DNA of 52,311 nt from Xanthobacteraceae bacterium. Lineage in GTDB: Bacteria; Pseudomonadota; Alphaproteobacteria; Rhizobiales; Xanthobacteraceae. The stretch spans positions 1-52,311 of the forward strand of contig JBKKAF010000130.1 of the NCBI GenBank assembly GCA_046714775.1, written 5' to 3'. Each line of letters opens with the position of its first letter. The first letter of the stretch is position 1. Of this stretch, positions 14,048-49,927 are shown in pieces. The translations under genes were made by a program, and so were the position numbers. The notes beneath the pieces were generated by a model that saw only the letters and a list, made by a program, of their open reading frames with translations, was not told the origin of the DNA and ran no database searches.

Positions 14048-14226
14048 GGGGCCTGTTATGCCCGGCCTTGCCGTTATCGTCCACAAGGGACGTTTTGCGC
14101 CGAACCGCCACCTCACAAGCAGCTGCCGAGGTCACAAGCTAGTCATCGCCCCAGTTCAGACTTGACTTGGTTTTGCGGTCTTTCGACCTTGGTGCGTCGT
14201 CGCAATCGCCGTTCCGGGAGGCGAAA

Positions 14227-15000
14227 ATGGGTAGTCGAAGGCTGGGTCGGGCGTTGGTCTTTCTTGGGATCCTCGCGATCACCGTCAGCATGGCGTGGTG
14301 GGCGTCCTACTACAATCAAGTCATCGGCTCGTTCGGGGAAAAGCCGCCGCTGACCCATGCCCTGTATTGCATCCTGTATACCACCGACGCATGCGCGCAG
14401 GCACAGGCTGCCGCAAAGCTGCCCGTCCAGTTTCCCTTTCCCCCGTACAACCCTTTGGCTGCGTGGTTTGCGATTGCAATTCTCGTCCTAGGCCTGGTTG
14501 TTGTTGCGCGCAGCGCGAGTAGCGAGCCCGCCCCGGTCACGCCGGCCGGCGAGCCGAAACTCTTCATTCCGAAGCTTGAACCGGTCTACGCCTGGACCCG
14601 CGATCTGTCCTGGCCGCTGATCCGCATCACACTGGGATTGAGCTTGTTTTATTTCGGCGCGGTGAAGGTGCTCTACTCCAGCATCCCCATCTTTGCCGCC
14701 GGTAGCATGGCGCGGCGCGGCCTCGAGCCTTCGGTGATCTTCGCCTACATCATCTTCTTCAACGAGGCGATCGGCTCTCTGCTGTTGGCGCTCGGCCTGT
14801 TTACCCGCTTCGTCGCCGCCTCGATCGCGATCGAGTTTTTCATGATCACTTTCTTCGCGCACTTTTCTTATGGGTTCGCCTGGAACAATGCGAGGGGCGG
14901 GTGGCTCTTTCCCTTGATGTTCGGAATTCTTGTTTTTGCCGTGTCCTTACGCGGCGGCGGGCCATATTCGCTCGACCGCCTGCTGCGCCGCGAGCTGTGA
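14227..15000 (+). CDS. DoxX-family membrane protein with extra N-terminal TM domain
   Basis: GGGAGG upstream of ATG 14227. The C-terminal half resembles DoxX (IRITLGLSLFYFGAVKV...FTRFVAASIAIEFFMITF...GGGPYSLD). Confidence 0.6.
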   Translation: MGSRRLGRALVFLGILAITVSMAWWASYYNQVIGSFGEKPPLTHALYCILYTTDACAQAQAAAKLPVQFPFPPYNPLAAWFAIAILVLGLVVVARSASSEPAPVTPAGEPKLFIPKLEPVYAWTRDLSWPLIRITLGLSLFYFGAVKVLYSSIPIFAAGSMARRGLEPSVIFAYIIFFNEAIGSLLLALGLFTRFVAASIAIEFFMITFFAHFSYGFAWNNARGGWLFPLMFGILVFAVSLRGGGPYSLDRLLRREL

Positions 15001-21715: not shown

Positions 21716-22660
21716 ATGTCGGTCGCATTCGTGTTTCCAGGACAGGGCAGCCAGGCGGTGGGCATGGGCAAGGCGTTGGCGGCGTCCTTTCCGGCCGCTC
21801 GTGCGGTATTCGATGAGGTGGATGCCGCGCTCGGCGACAAGCTAAGCGCGGTGATGTGGGACGGACCGGCCGAGACGCTGATGCTGACGGAGAATGCCCA
21901 GCCCGCGCTCGTCGCGGTATCGCTGGCCGCGATGCGGGTGCTGGAAGCGGAAGCCGGGGTCGACCTGGTGCGCGAGGCGCAATTCGTCGCCGGTCATTCG
22001 GTCGGTGAATATTCCGCACTGGCGGCGGCCGGTGCGATGTCGGTGACCGACGCAGTGCGGCTGGTGCGCATCCGCGGACGCTCCATGCAACAGGCGGTGC
22101 CGGTGGGCGTCGGCGCCATGGCGGCGCTGATCGGCGTAGATTTCGAGCAGGCGGCTGCGATCGCCGCTGAAGCCGCGCAGGGCGAAGTCTGCCAGGCGGC
22201 GAACGACAATGGCGGCGGCCAGGTGGTGATCTCGGGTCACCAGGGCGCGGTGGAACGCGCGGTCGAATTGGCCAAGGCCAAGGGCGTCAAACGCGCAATG
22301 ATGCTGCCGGTGTCCGGTCCGTTCCATTCCGCGCTGATGCAACCGACCGCCGACGTGATGGCGCAGGCGCTGGCAAAGGTTACAATCAAGCCGCCGAGCG
22401 TTCCGCTGGTTGCCAATGTGGCCGCCAAGCCGGTCAGCGAGCCGTCGCAGCTCAGGCAGGGCTTGGTCGATCAGGTGACCGGCACAGTGCGTTGGCGGGA
22501 ATCGGTGGCGTTCATGGCGGAGGCGGGAGTCACGACCTTCTACGAGGTTGGCTCGGGCAAGGTGCTCTCCGGTCTCATCAGACGCATCGCCGAAGGCGCC
22601 AGCAGTGTTTCGGTCGGCACGCCGGAGGACGTCGCTGCCTTCAAGGCGGCACGCGGATGA
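21716..22660 (+). CDS. fabD: malonyl-CoA:ACP transacylase
   Basis: FVFPGQGSQ and active-site GHSVGEYSAL. Start set at ATG 21716 (MSVAFVFPGQGSQ). The upstream 103 codons of the ORF are non-homologous. Confidence 0.93.
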   Translation: MSVAFVFPGQGSQAVGMGKALAASFPAARAVFDEVDAALGDKLSAVMWDGPAETLMLTENAQPALVAVSLAAMRVLEAEAGVDLVREAQFVAGHSVGEYSALAAAGAMSVTDAVRLVRIRGRSMQQAVPVGVGAMAALIGVDFEQAAAIAAEAAQGEVCQAANDNGGGQVVISGHQGAVERAVELAKAKGVKRAMMLPVSGPFHSALMQPTADVMAQALAKVTIKPPSVPLVANVAAKPVSEPSQLRQGLVDQVTGTVRWRESVAFMAEAGVTTFYEVGSGKVLSGLIRRIAEGASSVSVGTPEDVAAFKAARG

Positions 22661-22697: not shown

Positions 22698-23435
22698 ATG
22701 TTCGATTTGACCGGCAGGACCGCCCTGGTCACCGGCGCCACCGGCGGGATCGGTGGCGCAATCGCCCGGGCGCTGCACGGCAATGGCGCGACCGTGACGC
22801 TGTCGGGCACGCGCCGTGACGTGCTCGATCAACTGGCCGGCGATCTCCGCGAGCGCGTCCACGTGCTGCCCTGCAACCTCGCGAACAAGGACGAGGTCGA
22901 AGCGCTCGTGCCCCAGTCGGAAGAGACGATGGGCAAGCTCGACATCCTGGTCGCAAATGCTGGCGTCACCCGCGACAATCTGTTCGTGCAATTGAGCGAC
23001 GAGGCCTGGGACGAGGTGATTGCCGTCAATCTGACGGCGACCTTTCGCCTCACACGGGCGGCGGTGAAGGGCATGATGCGCCGGCGCTACGGCCGCGTGA
23101 TCGGCATCACATCGGTGGTCGGGGTCACCGGCAATGCCGGGCAGGGCAATTATGCCGCCACCAAGGCCGGCATGATCGGCATGATGAAGTCGGTCGCGCA
23201 GGAATATGCCAAGCGCAATGTGACGGCGAACTGCATCGCGCCGGGCTTCATCGCCACGCCGATGACCGACAAGCTGAACGACAAGCAGCGCGAGGCGATC
23301 CTCGGCCGGGTGCCGGTCGGGCGGCTCGGCTCGGGCGCGGATATCGCGGCGGCGGCGGTCTATCTGGCCTCCGACGAGGCAGCCTATGTCACGGGCCAGA
23401 CACTGCATGTGAATGGTGGAATGGCCATGTTTTGA
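22698..23435 (+). CDS. fabG: 3-oxoacyl-ACP reductase
   Basis: TGATGGIGGAIA, NAG, catalytic YAATKAG. ATG 22698 is preceded by GGGAGAAG. Confidence 0.93.
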   Translation: MFDLTGRTALVTGATGGIGGAIARALHGNGATVTLSGTRRDVLDQLAGDLRERVHVLPCNLANKDEVEALVPQSEETMGKLDILVANAGVTRDNLFVQLSDEAWDEVIAVNLTATFRLTRAAVKGMMRRRYGRVIGITSVVGVTGNAGQGNYAATKAGMIGMMKSVAQEYAKRNVTANCIAPGFIATPMTDKLNDKQREAILGRVPVGRLGSGADIAAAAVYLASDEAAYVTGQTLHVNGGMAMF

Positions 23436-23673
23436 GGTCCGGTCGCGCGGCTCGCAGCGGTTCTGGCGTGACGGTGCGGGTATGCTGGTCAAGGCTTTTG
23501 AAGTATGGTAACCGACCTCGGCTTGGCTGAGGAATTACGACGGGGCCGGCGGGGGCTCGCGCGGTCCGCTCGCGACCACAGTGGAGCTACCACCGTCGGC
23601 CACCAAGGCCATTCCACACCGGCTCGAGGCGACGACCGATCGAGCTCAATCCGACCTACACGAGGACGCAGCG

Positions 23674-23913
23674 ATGAGTGACATTGGCGAGCGGGTAAAA
23701 AAGATCGTCGTGGAGCATTTGGGCGTCGAGGCCGACAAGGTGACAGAGAACGCAAGCTTCATTGACGATCTCGGTGCCGACAGCCTCGACACCGTCGAAC
23801 TCGTGATGTCATTCTAGGAAGAGTTCGGCTGCGAGATTCCCGACGATGCGGCCGAAACCATCCTGACGGTGGGTGACGCGGTCAAATTTCTCGAAAAGAA
23901 CGCAAAAAGCTGA
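23674..23913 (+). pseudogene. acpP: acyl carrier protein AcpP reading frame interrupted by an in-frame TAG at codon 48 (23815-23817)
   Basis: [84 protein letters not shown]. The two parts are colinear with a 79-codon AcpP (DSL phosphopantetheine site present). GAGGA lies upstream of the ATG. Confidence 0.85.
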
Positions 23914-24023
23914 ACTCCCTGCTTTTCGCTGCGGTTTCTGACGGTTGGCGCGGATCACGCCGCGCTTTGGCGCTGACGCGCGCCAGGCGCATATAGTCGT
24001 TACGGGAGCCTGCGGAGCCGTAG

Positions 24024-25289
24024 ATGAGGCGTGTCGTCGTCACAGGGCTGGGGATGGTTACGCCGCTCGGCTGCGGCGTCGAGACCACGTGGCAGCGGCT
24101 GATCCGGGGCGACAGCGGCGCCAAGCGTATCGAGTCGTTCGACGTTTCCGATCTGTCGGCCAAGATCGCCTGCCAGATCCCGCGCGGCGACGGTTCCAAC
24201 GGAACCTACAATCCCGACCAGTGGATGGAGCCGAAAGAGCAGCGCAAGGTCGACGACTTCATCGTCTTTGCGATGAGCGCGGCGCGCCAGGCGCTCGACG
24301 ATGCCGAATGGCACCCGGCCTCGCAGGACGACCAGGTGACGACGGGCGTGATGATCGGCTCCGGCATCGGCGGCGTCGAAGGCATTGCCGACACCGCCAT
24401 AACCTTGAAGGAAAGGGGGCCGCGCCGGGTGTCGCCGTTCTTCATTCCCGGACGGCTGATCAATCTGGCATCCGGCTATGTGTCGATCGAATTCGGACTG
24501 AAAGGTCCCAACCATGCGGTGGTCACGGCGTGTTCGACCGGCGCCCATGCGATCGGCGACGCCGGCCGCATGATCGCGCTCGGCGATGCCGACGTCATGG
24601 TGGCGGGCGGCACTGAATCTCCGGTCAACCGCATCGCGCTCGCCGGCTTCTCGGCGCTGCGCGCCCTGTCGACCGGGTTCAACGACACGCCCGAGCGCGC
24701 CTCGCGTCCCTATGACAAGGACCGCGATGGATTCGTGATGGGCGAGGGCGCCGGCGTGCTGGTGCTGGAGGACTACGATCACGCCAAACGCCGCGGCGCC
24801 AAGATTCACGCCGAGCTGATCGGCTACGGACTGTCCGGCGACGCCTATCACATCACCGCGCCCACGCCCGATGGCGACGGCGCGCTCCGCTGCATGACCG
24901 CGGCTATGAAGCGCGCCGGCGTCACGCCGGCGGAACTCGACTACATCAATGCCCACGGCACTTCGACGCCGCTCGGCGACGAGATCGAGCTCGGCGCGGT
25001 GCAACGTCTGGTCGGCAATGCCGCCGGCCGGATGTCGATGTCGTCGACCAAATCCTCCATCGGCCATTTGCTCGGCGCGGCCGGCGCGGTCGAAGCGATC
25101 TTCTCGATTCTGGCCATTCGCGACCGGGTGGCGCCGCCGACACTCAATCTCGACAATCCGTCGGTCGAAACGCCGATTGACCTGGTGCCGCATAAATCCA
25201 AGCAGCAAGACATCGACGTGGTTTTGTCGAACTCTTTCGGCTTCGGCGGAACCAACGCATCCTTGGTGTTCCGACGCCTTGTGGATTAG
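24024..25289 (+). CDS. fabF: 3-oxoacyl-ACP synthase II
   Basis: Active-site Cys VVTACSTGAHAI, His motifs NAHGTSTP and GHLLGAAG. 421 aa. Confidence 0.95.
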   Translation: MRRVVVTGLGMVTPLGCGVETTWQRLIRGDSGAKRIESFDVSDLSAKIACQIPRGDGSNGTYNPDQWMEPKEQRKVDDFIVFAMSAARQALDDAEWHPASQDDQVTTGVMIGSGIGGVEGIADTAITLKERGPRRVSPFFIPGRLINLASGYVSIEFGLKGPNHAVVTACSTGAHAIGDAGRMIALGDADVMVAGGTESPVNRIALAGFSALRALSTGFNDTPERASRPYDKDRDGFVMGEGAGVLVLEDYDHAKRRGAKIHAELIGYGLSGDAYHITAPTPDGDGALRCMTAAMKRAGVTPAELDYINAHGTSTPLGDEIELGAVQRLVGNAAGRMSMSSTKSSIGHLLGAAGAVEAIFSILAIRDRVAPPTLNLDNPSVETPIDLVPHKSKQQDIDVVLSNSFGFGGTNASLVFRRLVD

Positions 25290-25511
25290 CGCCAGCACGC
25301 GCTGGCCGCGGCTTCAACCTTTCGCCATATTCGCTTCTAACGTAGGCCTGTTCGGGCGTCTGATTCTGTTGTCGTGTGCCGAACGAATGCGTCCTGCCGG
25401 ATGCGGCCCGAATGAATGCGTCCGAACCAATAACGACAAGAAATAACCTTCCTTTAAAGCGGGCATCGCCCGCGAGTTGGTGGTTGCGATCGTGGCAAGC
25501 GGCAACGCGGG

Positions 25512-27227
25512 GTGTCGGACGTGAATCCGGGGAGCACACCGCCTGGTAGCAACGGCGCCGGGCCCCTGCGTCCGCGTGCGCCATCGGCGCAGTCTGACGA
25601 GCGTGGCTTCGATCCCACGGACGTCCGGATCGCACCTGCTTGGTTGCCGCAGCCGGCAGCCGAAACAGCCCTAGCTATGGCGGCGGATGGAACTTTGGCC
25701 GCCGAACATCAAACGGGCCGAAATCTTTCCGAATCCGACGGAGTTGGGCATCGCAGAGCGCCCGGACTGCCGCCGCCCCCGGCGTCCTTTGGATCGGCGA
25801 GCAAACTCAAGAGCGAATCCAAGAGCAAGCCCGAGACCGCGCCCGCCGTTCCGGCTATGACGGGGCCGCCGATGTCGGCTATGGTCGGGCCTGCTCCGCC
25901 TCCGGCCGGCTCTTCCGCGCCCGGCCGCGGCGCATCCCCTTCCGCTTCGGCGCGGCCTCCGCTGCCTGGCGCGGGCGAACCGGATCCGCCCATTCCCGGG
26001 CATCCCATCAATGGACTTGGCGCATCGCTTATGGAGCAAAAACGGATCACCCCGCGCAGCCCGCGCGCCGCTCTTGAGCCGGAGCATGTGCCGCTGCCGA
26101 CCCGGCCGTCGAAGCGAACGCGCAATCCGCTCGTCATTGTCGGAAATGCCATTTTCACGCTGCTGGTCCTGGTCGCTTTCGCCGGCGGCACCGCCATCAT
26201 GCTCGGCAAGCAGCGGTTCGAAGCGCCCGGCCCGCTTGAGCAGGATAAGACCGTTGTCATTCCGCCCCGCCTCGGGATGGTGGAGATCGCCGACCTCTTG
26301 AAGCGGGAAGGTGTGATCGACGAGCACCGGATCGTCTTTGTCAGCGGCGTGTTCGCGCTCAAGGCGCGCAGCGATCTGAAATCCGGCGAATATCTGTTCG
26401 TCAAGCGCGCCAGCGTCCGCGACGTGGTGGAAACCATGGTCGAGGGCAAGGTGGTCCAGCACTCCTTCACGATTCCCGAAGGGTTGACCTCCGAACAGAT
26501 CGTGGCGCGCCTTCTGGAGAACGACATCCTGTCCGGCACCATCAAGGACGTGCCGCGCGAAGGCACCATGTTGCCGGAGACTTACAGCTTCCCGCGCGGC
26601 TTCACTCGCGAGCAATTGATCCAGCGGATGCAGCAGGGGCAGCAGCGGCTGATCAAGGACGTCTGGGATCGGCGCAACGGTGATCTGCCTCTGCGATCGC
26701 TGGAGCAGTTGATCATCCTCGCCTCGATCATCGAGAAGGAAACCAGCAAGCCGGAGGAGCGCACGCGGATCGCGGCGGTGTTCGTCAATCGCCTGAAGCA
26801 GCGGATGAAGCTGCAATCCGATCCGACCATCATCTATGGCCTGGTGCGCGGCAAGGGCGCGCTCGGCCGGCCGATTTCACGGCGCGATATCGAGCAACCG
26901 ACCGAATACAACACCTATGTCATCGATGGATTGCCGCCCGGGCCGATCGCCAATCCGGGGCGGGCGTCGCTCGAGGCTGCGGCCAATCCGGCGCGCACCA
27001 AGGAACTGTTTTTCGCTGCCGACGGCACCGGCGGTCATGCCTTCGCCGACACCTACGACCAGCACCTGAAGAACGTCGCGCGCCTGCGCGTGATCGAGCA
27101 GGACCAGAACAAGGAACCGGCGGCATCCGATGCGTCGCCGTCGCCCGCCGCCCCGCGCGCTCCGGCGCCGCGGCCCAAGCGTGGCGCCAATGGCGCACCG
27201 AAAGCGGCGAAAGCCGCCGCGCAGTGA
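25512..27227 (+). CDS. mltG: endolytic murein transglycosylase MltG (YceG-like); start codon uncertain
   Basis: TM segment (LVIVGNAIFTLLVLVAFAGG) followed by a YceG domain (TIPEGLTSEQI...LASIIEKETSKPEER...VFVNRLKQRMKLQSDPTIIYG...YNTY...GLPPGPIANPG). The first roughly 173 codons are P/A/S-rich with visibly more A/T-ending codons. An alternative in-frame ATG lies at 26031. Confidence 0.8.
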   Translation: MSDVNPGSTPPGSNGAGPLRPRAPSAQSDERGFDPTDVRIAPAWLPQPAAETALAMAADGTLAAEHQTGRNLSESDGVGHRRAPGLPPPPASFGSASKLKSESKSKPETAPAVPAMTGPPMSAMVGPAPPPAGSSAPGRGASPSASARPPLPGAGEPDPPIPGHPINGLGASLMEQKRITPRSPRAALEPEHVPLPTRPSKRTRNPLVIVGNAIFTLLVLVAFAGGTAIMLGKQRFEAPGPLEQDKTVVIPPRLGMVEIADLLKREGVIDEHRIVFVSGVFALKARSDLKSGEYLFVKRASVRDVVETMVEGKVVQHSFTIPEGLTSEQIVARLLENDILSGTIKDVPREGTMLPETYSFPRGFTREQLIQRMQQGQQRLIKDVWDRRNGDLPLRSLEQLIILASIIEKETSKPEERTRIAAVFVNRLKQRMKLQSDPTIIYGLVRGKGALGRPISRRDIEQPTEYNTYVIDGLPPGPIANPGRASLEAAANPARTKELFFAADGTGGHAFADTYDQHLKNVARLRVIEQDQNKEPAASDASPSPAAPRAPAPRPKRGANGAPKAAKAAAQ

Positions 27228-46185: not shown

Positions 46186-48405
46186 ATGGCAGATCGCGCA
46201 CAAGCAGCTGTTATTGCTGAAGAAACCGCGTCGCCGACGGCCCCGGAGGGGACCGCGGGCGCGGTGGTGTCTGGGCTTGCCGCCAGCCCCGACCGCTTCA
46301 TCAACCGGGAACTTTCCTGGCTGCATTTCAATCGCCGCGTGCTCGAGGAAGCCGAGAACGCGTCGCATCCTTTGCTGGAGCGCATCCGGTTTCTGTCGAT
46401 TTCGGCAAACAACCTCGACGAATTCTTCATGGTGCGTGTCGCCGGCCTCAAGGCGCAGTTGCGTGCCGGCATTACCAGCAAGAGTCCGGACGGTCTGACG
46501 CCCGCCGAGCAGCTCACACGAATTTCAGAGGCGGTGTCGATACTGGCGGGCGATCAGCAGAAACGCTGGCAGGAGCTTCGCAAAGCGCTCGCCGAACAGG
46601 AAATCGTGCTGGTCGACGGCCCTGATGTGACCAAGAAAGAGAAGACGTGGCTGGAGGATCACTTCCTGCGCCATATCTTTCCTTTGTTGACGCCGCTCGC
46701 TATCGACCCGGCGCATCCGTTTCCGTTCATCCCCAATCTCGGCTTCACCATGGCGCTGGCCCTGGCGCGCGCCAGCGACGGCAAGGTGATGAATGCGCTG
46801 ATCCGAATTCCAGGCAAGGTCGAGCGCTTCATCCGGCTGCCTGCCGGCGAAGGATCGTCCGCCGCACGGCTCATCACACTCGAGCAGGCGACCGTGCTCT
46901 TCATCGGCCGCTTGTTTCCCGGCTATGCGGTGAAAGGGCAGGGCGCTTTCCGGGTCATTCGCGACTCGGAAGTGGAAATCGAGGAAGAGGCGGAAGACCT
47001 CGTTCGCGTGTTTGAAACGGCGCTCAAACGGCGACGGCGCGGATCGGTGATCCGGCTCGAGCTGCAGGCGGCGATGCCGGCCGAGCTGCGGCGCTTCGTG
47101 GCACGGGCGCTGGCGGTCGGCGATGACGAGCTGTTCGTGGTCGACGGGATGCTCGCGCTCAGCGAATTGGTGCAGATTACCGGTGTCGACCGGCCGGATC
47201 TGGAATTCGTGCCCTATAATCCGCGCTTTCCGGAACGCATTCGCGAACAGGGCGGCGACTGCTTCGCGGCGATCCGCCAGAAGGATTTGATCGTCCATCA
47301 CCCCTACGAGTCATTCGACGTCGTAGTGCAGTTCCTGCAACAGGCCGCACGGGATCCCAATGTCGTCGCGATCAAGCAAACGCTTTACCGGACCTCGGCT
47401 GAATCGCCGATCATCCGGGCGCTGATCGAGGCGGCGGAAGCGGGCAAGTCGGTGACGGCTCTGGTGGAGCTGAAAGCGCGCTTCGACGAGGAGGCCAATA
47501 TCCGTTGGGCGCGCGATCTCGAACGCGCGGGCGCCCAGGTGGTGTTCGGTTTCATCGAACTGAAGATCCACGCCAAGCTCTCGCTGGTGGTGCGGCGCGA
47601 GGCCGGGGCGTTGACCTCATATGTCCATGTCGGCACCGGCAATTATCATCCGATGACGGCGCGCATCTATACCGACCTGTCGTTTTTCACCTCCGATCCG
47701 GCTGTCGCGCGCGACGTCGGTCTGGTGTTCAATTACGTCACCGGCTACGCGGAGCCCGCCGAACTGCAGAAGCTTGCGGTTTCGCCGGTCTCGCTGCGGC
47801 AGCGCATCCTCGACCACATCGCGCAGGAAATCGCGCACGCCAAAGCCGGCCGCCCGGCGGCGATCTGGATGAAGATGAATGCGCTGGTCGATCCCGATAT
47901 CATCGACGCGCTGTACCAGGCTTCGGCGGCGGGGGTCGCCATCGACCTCGAGGTGCGCGGCATCTGTTGCCTGCGCCCGGCCGTGGCCGGTCTTTCCGAA
48001 AATATCCGGGTCAAGTCGATTGTCGGCCGCTTTCTCGAACACGGCCGCATCTATTGCTTCGGCATGGGGCACGGGCTCCCGCATCCCAAATCCGCGATCT
48101 ATATCTCCTCGGCCGATATGATGCCGCGCAATCTGGACCGTCGGGTAGAGGTTCTGTGCCCGATCCTCAATCCGACCGTGCATGAGCAGGTGCAGGATCA
48201 GATCATGGTGGCCAACTTCAAGGACAATGAACAAAGCTGGATCCTGTTGCCCGATGGCACGTCGAATCGCGTAAAAGCGGCGGCGGGCGAGGAACCGTTC
48301 AACGCTCAGAAATATTTCATGACCAATCCGAGTCTCTCAGGCCGTGGCAAATCGCTCAAAGAATCGCCGCCGCGCAGTCTCATCCGGAGGCTCGAGCGCG
48401 GCTAA
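46186..48405 (+). CDS. ppk: polyphosphate kinase 1
   Basis: 739 aa. [16 protein letters not shown], the autophosphorylated-His region, and two PLD-like HxK motifs (e.g. IHAKLSLV). Confidence 0.95.
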
Positions 48406-49927
48406 GCGCCGCCGGCAAGCGGTCGAGGGCGCACAAGGCCGTCTCGACTACGGTCCGCCGGTCGCGGTGATCGACATCGGGTCGAACTCGGTACGCCTCG
48501 TCGTCTACGAGGGCAAGACGCGCAGCCCGACCCCGATCTTCAACGAGAAAGTCCTGTGCGGCCTGGGCCGCCAAGTGCAAACGACCGGCCTGCTGGCCCC
48601 CGATGCCGTCGACAAGGCGCTCGCATCGCTGCGCCGGTTCCGCGCCCTTTGCGACCGGATCGCGGTGGCCAGGCTGTTCGTGGTGGCGACCGCGGCGTGC
48701 CGCGATGCCAGCAACGGCAAGGCTTTCATCGGCGAAGCGCAAAAGATCTGCCGCACCAAGATCGAGGTCATCTCCGGCAAGCGCGAGGCGCAATTGTCGG
48801 CACTCGGCGTGGTCTCGGGATTTCACCGTCCGGACGGGATCGTCGGCGATCTCGGCGGCGGCTCCCTCGAACTGACCGAGGTCCATGGCCATCGCGTCCG
48901 GCCTGGCGTCACGCTTCCGCTCGGCGGTCTGGCGCTGCAGGACATTTCCTCCAAATCGCTCAAGAAGGCCGAGAAGATCGTCACGAAAGCGCTGGAGGGT
49001 ACCGACCTGCTGGACGCCGCCAAGGGCCGCACCTTCTACGCCATCGGCGGCACCTGGCGCGCGCTCGCCCGCCTGCACATGTGGCAGAAGGGTTACCCAC
49101 TGCACGTCATGCACGGCTACGTCATGCCCGCGCGGGAGGCCTACGAATTCGCCAGCCTCGTCCATCGGGTGCATCCGGACACGCTGTCGCAGATCGAGGT
49201 GGTCGCCGCCGCCCGGCGCCCGCTGCTGCCCTATGCCGCGCTGGTGCTCGAACACCTGTTGCGGATCGGACGCCCCAAGGACGTGGTGATCTCCGCCATG
49301 GGCGTGCGCGAAGGTTTGCTCTATTCGCTGCTGCCTGCGGACGAGCGCCATAAGGACCCGCTGCTCGCCGCCGCGGCCGAGCTCAACGTGCTGCGTTCGC
49401 GCTCGCCCGCCCACGGCGACGAGCTGATCGCCTGGACCGACCGTTTCGCGGCTTCCTCGGGGCTGGACGAAACCGCGGAGGAGCGGCGGCTGCGTCATGC
49501 CGCCTGTCTGCTTGCCGATATCGGCTGGCGGGCGCATCCGGATTATCGCGGAGAGCAGTCGCTCAATATCATCGCCAATGCCACTTTTGTCGCGATCGAC
49601 CATCCCGGCCGTACCTTCCTGGCGCTGGCCGTGTTCTTCCGCCATGTCGGACTGGTCGATGAGGAACTGTCGCCGCGGATGCGCGAACTCGCCTCCAGCC
49701 GCGTGCTTGACCGCGCGCGCGTTCTGGGCGCCGCGCTGCGGGTGGCCTATCTGGTCTCGGCCTCGATGCCCGGTGTGCTGCCGAGGACCCCGCTGGTGGT
49801 CAAGCGCGGCCGGCTGGTGCTGCGGTTCGGCAAGGGACTTGAGGATTTGGCCGGCGAACGCGTTTTCGTGCGGTTGCGGCAACTTGCCCGCCTGATCGGG
49901 CGCGAGCCGGTGATGCAAGCCGGCTGA
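48344..49927 (+). CDS. ppx: exopolyphosphatase (Ppx/GppA family); start uncertain
   Basis: [16 protein letters not shown], then [11 protein letters not shown] 48344 would overlap ppk by 62 nt. The only later candidate is the GTG immediately before IDIGSNS. Confidence 0.85.

Follow-up and report, generated by a model that had tools for sequence, protein, structure and literature searches.

Acyl carrier proteins (ACPs) are four-helix bundles in which the serine that carries the prosthetic group starts helix II, and AcpP buries the acyl chain between helices II and IV (PMC6619796). AcpP is essential and constitutively expressed in all bacteria, and the specialised ACPs of Alphaproteobacteria group apart from it and are not interchangeable in acylation and sphingolipid assays (PMC9386255). 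In Caulobacter crescentus the gene lies in the order fabD-fabG-acpP-fabF (PMC9386255), and the same order is found in the window, by which we mean the whole stretch of DNA that was analysed, an entire contig of 52,311 bp. Direct reading of the window places acpP at 23674-23913 of the plus strand and reveals a TAG in-frame at 23815-23817, which is codon 48 of this gene.

The acpP frame opens with the ATG at 23674 and, after the TAG, remains open for a further 31 codons up to the TGA at 23911-23913. Apart from the stop, the gene is colinear with a 79-codon AcpP, and it was 97.5% identical to the AcpP of a close relative (locus L085) over 79 positions when the stop was counted. With Glu put back at codon 48, the translation matched the NCBIfam model NF002151 at 152 bits (cut-off 92) over positions 1-77 of 78, while the 47-residue fragment alone scored 92.7 bits against the same cut-off of 92. 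The first-pass annotation of this DNA had reported the TAG at codon 48 and the colinearity with a 79-codon AcpP; the sequence read bears out the former with its coordinates, and the model match with Glu restored bears out the latter. The DSL phosphopantetheine motif is kept (GADSLD, with Ser37 at 23782-23784), and codon 46 encodes Ser (TCA). In the deposited record the four-helix reading frame is broken: translation ends after residue 47, inside helix II, and helices III and IV are missing from the 47-residue product. From what is established about ACPs, a product of this length would be unable to function.

Upstream of the gene, the acpP leader (23631-23673, plus strand) carries a ribosome-binding site, GAGGA, at 23662-23666, 7 nt 5′ of the ATG. 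An alignment of five lineages showed the leader to be conserved, with only one variable base, at 23646, indicating that the expression signals are intact. Apart from this base the leader is invariant, although the flanking genes of the same five lineages are only 82-95% identical in DNA, and the whole spacer between fabG and acpP is conserved more strongly than the neighbouring coding genes. The spacer may contain promoter or regulatory signals; neither an Rfam match nor a sigma-70 consensus was found. At the other end of the gene, an inverted-repeat search returned a repeat that spans the acpP stop codon (I21, 23902-23929, plus strand; GCAAAAAGC / GCTTTTCGC). No terminator-like site was scored on the plus strand, and the repeat, which could form a stem-loop between acpP and fabF, has at most a putative function.

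The neighbouring fatty-acid synthesis genes, all on the plus strand, are intact. The malonyl-CoA:ACP transacylase gene fabD (21716-22660) matched TIGR00128 at 327 bits, and its product was 96.8% identical to that of L085 over 314 residues without a stop or gap; the 3-oxoacyl-ACP reductase gene fabG (22698-23435) matched TIGR01830 at 309.5 bits (cut-off 297.75), with 95.9% identity over 245 residues. The 3-oxoacyl-ACP synthase II gene fabF (24024-25289), which itself ends in TAG, matched TIGR03150 at 624 bits and was 96.2% identical over 421 residues. These model matches and alignments uphold the earlier description of fabD, fabG and fabF as intact. The same is true of mltG, and all four genes pass equivalog or subfamily models. 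The placement of acpP between fabG and fabF was confirmed in the window, and the order is identical in 88 related loci.

The state of the contig as a whole is equally sound. Besides acpP, 18 genes were comparable with L085, all of them complete and without a stop or frameshift, and the window is compact, with prfC, panB, der, purF, radA, alr, dnaB, rplI, rpsR, rpsF, the fab genes and mltG all intact. Further intact housekeeping genes include gmk, rsmA, pdxA, surA, lptD/F/G, pepA, holC, ndk, purN/M, ppk and rnd. On these grounds, with every other gene intact, we ruled out a contig that is error-prone or degenerating throughout. Since the window is a whole contig and its closest relatives all come from environmental metagenomes, its likely origin is a metagenome or MAG assembly of an uncultured Xanthobacteraceae/Pseudolabrys-like alphaproteobacterium.

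Several local features of the contig were also observed. Near the fab cluster, variation peaks in the 5′ part (25400-26030) of the mltG ORF (25512-27227), where MltG has a long N-terminal extension; identity to L088 is 70-80% there, compared with about 90% elsewhere. Gene callers assign the relatives products of 400 to 571 residues, and the YceG models cover only residues ~214-528. A DoxX-family gene (14167-15000) is locally divergent or replaced, with 67% protein identity to its L085 counterpart as against 96-98% for the adjacent dnaB and methyltransferase gene. Finally, 3′ of ppk there are two ORFs of more than 500 codons each that lie on opposite strands and overlap almost totally (48344-49927, plus; 48380-49918, minus). 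Judged by its position beside ppk, the plus-strand ORF may be ppx, and a Pfam scan of the minus-strand ORF gave no match.

We compared the acpP locus with 88 orthologous fab loci, comprising 80 genome representatives and the 8 nearest metagenomic relatives. Ala46 (GCN) and Glu48 (GAR), within the motif ...VELVMAFEEEF..., were present in 88/88 of these loci, and TAG at codon 48 was present in 0/88. The first-pass annotation had proposed such an alignment as a check, and the uniform Glu48 lends support to the error that it had listed among its options; the uniform Ala46 confirms its remark that Ser (TCA) stands in place of a conserved Ala. The closest lineage is made up of four loci (L081/L085, L082/L087, L083 and L086) from independent groundwater and other metagenome records, and its DNA identity to the window is ~93% over 21 kb. 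Where this lineage reads ATG GCA TTC GAG, the window reads ATG TCA TTC TAG. The window changes are thus two G>T transversions on the plus strand, separated by 6 nt and each in the first base of its codon, one at 23809 (GCA>TCA, Ala46Ser) and one at 23815 (GAG>TAG, Glu48 to stop). As the closest relatives have GCA and GAG, each change requires a single G>T, which for the stop is the one-step route that had been suggested from the window itself.

Ala46Ser and Glu48stop are the sole non-synonymous differences in acpP between the window and L085. The other four differences in the coding sequence, at 23700, 23838, 23865 and 23868, are all synonymous; three of these (23838, 23865 and 23868) lie downstream of the stop, where no non-synonymous difference was found. 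Likewise, the differences from the more distant L084 that lie 3′ of the stop in acpP are synonymous, and the 31 codons of this segment (23818-23910, plus strand) encode amino acids that are 100% identical to those of the closest relatives, consistent with persisting purifying selection. Both private changes fall within 137 nt (23701-23837) over which the window and the L085 lineage do not otherwise differ. G>T accounted for just 58/1361 of the substitutions between the window and L085. In columns where at least 97% of relatives agree, private changes were found at 2/46 positions in AcpP, two codons apart, compared with 0/594 in eight flanking proteins (FabD, FabG, FabF, S6, S18, YicC, Gmk and MltG; Fisher p = 0.005). 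The anomaly is confined to acpP and is strictly local. With only synonymous differences after the stop, and with the leader, its ribosome-binding site and the terminal TGA all preserved, the gene is free of decay, and along its whole length acpP has been under ordinary purifying selection until essentially the present.

A search of FabF over 5.8 billion protein clusters placed the window's own FabF on one contig of exactly 52,311 bp (P0001), which shows the window to be a complete contig, and returned best non-self matches that were 92-96% identical and came from groundwater ENA assemblies, JGI metagenomes and an NCBI metagenome record. For GTDB representatives, the best FabF among the matches listed was 83% identical, from Pseudolabrys-like or Xanthobacteraceae MAGs. 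Exact-protein look-ups of FabF and of the 47-residue fragment, and the cluster search, gave no other assembly of this population. As the best non-self FabF is only 96% identical, the allele with TAG and Ser46 is backed by one assembly only. The 47-residue N-terminus with Ser46 was found in no protein of the 5.8-billion-cluster database, its best matches being 46/47 identical and all having Ala46.

Taken together, these data make it most likely that the TAG and Ser46 are a sequencing or assembly consensus error, or a variant that is unfixed in the population, and that acpP itself is ordinary. A technical cause for the two G>T changes is strongly favoured, though short of proof, since both are private, of identical type and 6 nt apart, the codons downstream differ only synonymously, and the acpP core is error-prone. 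A variant that is private to one assembly and clustered at otherwise invariant positions of a strongly constrained gene bears the hallmark of an artefact. In the living organism acpP would almost certainly read ...VELVMAFEEEF... and encode a normal 78/79-residue ACP, which would carry 4′-phosphopantetheine on Ser37 and shuttle acyl chains between the Fab enzymes. The two G>T miscalls would then fall within one read or one k-mer, or would at most reflect an unfixed population variant captured by the assembler. The stop and Ser46 do belong to the record, but on the weight of the evidence they do not belong to the organism.

How such an error could arise is suggested in part by the local sequence. 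Illumina sequence-specific errors begin within ~10 nt downstream of GGC, are commoner in high-GC genomes, and usually repeat the base found one or two positions earlier (Nakamura et al. 2011, PMC3141275). The inferred true sequence, GTGATGGCATTCGAGG, has GGC at 23808-23810, and each T in the window matches the base two positions before it (in ATG and in TTC, respectively). The fit is loose, since 23809 is itself part of the GGC; the site would be compatible with an error of this type if the contig came from Illumina reads, and the evidence for it is weak. As a counterpoint to an error of any kind, the contig is otherwise clean over ~600 conserved codons, which gives no clear sign of a high error rate overall. 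De Bruijn assemblers normally discard low-coverage error paths, and the TAG path must therefore have been the majority or the only local path, which also counts against an error. Two mutational routes were considered for the same positions. Allowing up to three mismatches (<=3), a search for a gene-conversion donor with GATGTCATTCTAGGAA matched only the site itself. A quasi-palindrome or template switch was rejected, since the only relevant repeat (I20, 23676-23684 / 23806-23814, 9 nt, 89% complementary) covers the first change only and looks like a chance match.

Lesions at this position are not peculiar to the window. We scanned JGI metagenome contigs for TAG at codon 48 in acpP of this type and obtained one match, which was unrelated (L089); the window itself was not recovered. 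At 422-453 of this 1257-bp contig (Ga0255295_1021370, fabG-acpP-fabF) the sequence reads GCG TTC TAG GAA GAG, in a frame that is otherwise open. A protein-cluster search with the 47-residue N-terminus returned one 47-residue product, P0203, from the region 401-615 of a 615-bp contig (L090; ENA ERZ1758394, JX_forest_Scaff5457044) that has A46E together with TAG at codon 48. The N-terminal half of L090 is 44/47 like the window lineage, and the post-stop part, DEFEMSIPDEEAEKIQTVGQAID, comes from a different lineage; L090 looks like a chimera made in assembly, with breaks at the two codons that are changed in the window. Most of the best 120 cluster representatives (P0121-P0240) pair an N-half that is 45-47/47 identical with a foreign C-half that is 13-24/32 identical, and nearly all of these mosaics are singletons on contigs of 0.5-1.5 kb. 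Frameshifts or internal deletions were found in P0130, P0172, P0221, P0209, P0185 and P0198. The conserved acpP core thus seems to be a frequent inter-genome chimera junction in metagenome assemblies, and it is demonstrably a place where metagenome assemblers make artefacts. The window was rejected as an inter-genome chimera joined at acpP, the identity to L085, L088 and L084 being similar on either side of the site.

The main rival to a consensus error is that the double mutation is real but unfixed: both G>T changes would have arisen in one multi-nucleotide event, for example through error-prone oxidative-damage bypass, to give a null allele that is not what the population lives on and that the assembler took up from a minor part of the population, from relic DNA or from one of the chromosome copies of a cell in which another copy was good. 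This account, which we regard as rather unlikely, is in keeping with the closeness and shared type of the two changes, which a single mutation event would produce, with a downstream segment that is undecayed and would make the event very recent, and with a contig that comes from one assembly only. However, a lethal allele should be rare and should not be preferred by a consensus assembler, A46S would be a needless second hit at an invariant residue, and the sequence itself cannot tell such an allele from a technical error. That the TAG and Ser46 are real and also fixed in a free-living environmental alphaproteobacterium, with acpP a very recent null or an amber-suppressed allele, is in our view very unlikely. 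An old pseudogene in a shrinking genome is suggested by the stop codon alone and has next to no probability, since the lesion is single and leaves the frame unshifted, the 31 codons after it are 100% conserved with only synonymous changes, and the rest of the 52-kb window looks intact. Purifying selection along the entire gene excludes it, and the pattern of substitutions past the stop (0 non-synonymous and 3 synonymous compared with L085) refutes it.

The ways in which a fixed allele could be tolerated fare no better. A second AcpP-like gene elsewhere in the genome could run fatty-acid synthesis, and extra ACPs such as NodF, AcpXL, RkpF and AcpR are indeed common in Alphaproteobacteria (PMC9386255); a related organism, moreover, has a stand-alone AcpP-like paralogue (P0227/L091) that is ~80% identical and has a natural Ser46. 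This gene lies at 266-505 of a 904-bp contig (JGI Ga0643888_0531000) that has neither fabG nor fabF, and its Ser46 is encoded by AGC in ...ELAMSFEDEF...; it is possibly a second AcpP-class paralogue in that organism. We nevertheless judge this kind of rescue to be very improbable indeed: no second ACP was found within the 52-kb window, acpP is intact at this locus in each of the 88 relatives, and the specialised ACPs were not interchangeable with AcpP in the acylation and sphingolipid assays of one study (PMC9386255). Relaxed selection would also be expected, yet the other changes are synonymous and the leader is conserved. Decoding of the TAG to give full-length AcpP, through a suppressor tRNA, readthrough or pyrrolysine-like recoding, would accord with the perfect continuation of the frame past the TAG and with the conserved downstream codons. 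It is nonetheless hardly credible, as TAG is the ordinary terminator of 6/17 neighbouring genes (dnaB, rplI, rpsR, fabF, rsmA and surA), whose ends are colinear with those of relatives, and no internal in-frame TAG or other stop was found in any of the other genes compared. Furthermore, the window contains no tRNA gene, the orthologues lack the TAG, which was seen elsewhere only in the two unrelated short contigs L089 and L090, one of them visibly chimeric, and decoding would leave A46S unexplained. An RNA element was dropped as an explanation, since no Rfam match at the gathering threshold was found anywhere in the window. Three kinds of explanation had been offered in the first-pass annotation, and the base-call or assembly error is the one that is now favoured. 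Amber suppression or readthrough, by which it had suggested that a nonsense allele could be tolerated, lacks support given the normal use of TAG by the neighbours and the lack of a tRNA in the window, and a mutagenised strain fits poorly with a whole contig whose closest relatives (96% in FabF) are all from environmental metagenomes.

If a fixed allele were true, fatty-acid synthesis in this organism would depend on a second AcpP-like paralogue, like the Ser46-bearing L091, or on low-level readthrough. This would be a natural bacterium without the canonical AcpP, which is among the most conserved and abundant of essential proteins, and it would suggest that ACP redundancy or amber suppression occurs in nature. 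As an artefact, the practical worth of the finding is one of caution, in that the ultra-conserved centre of acpP is nearly base-for-base common to co-occurring genomes. When an essential gene on a single metagenome contig looks like a pseudogene, the reads should be checked before any interpretation.

Compared with the housekeeping alphaproteobacterial AcpP (NF002151/TIGR00517; PF00550), the window gene is alike in its 79 codons, in the DSL site and in the helix-II acidic patch ...DTVELVMAFEEEF, and the restored AcpP is 96-97% identical to that of Pseudolabrys-like and other Hyphomicrobiales genomes. It is unlike every other AcpP member examined in having TAG for Glu48 and Ser for Ala46. With programmed amber decoding, as known for pyrrolysine and suppressor tRNAs, the window shares an in-frame TAG followed by an open and conserved downstream frame, whereas here a single gene is concerned, the TAG is unconserved, and no decoding machinery is present in the window. 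The likeness to the consensus errors and chimeric joins of short-read metagenomes lies in private changes of the same type, clustered within one k-mer at the acpP core; in contrast to chimeric joins, the window shows no shift of relatedness across the site.
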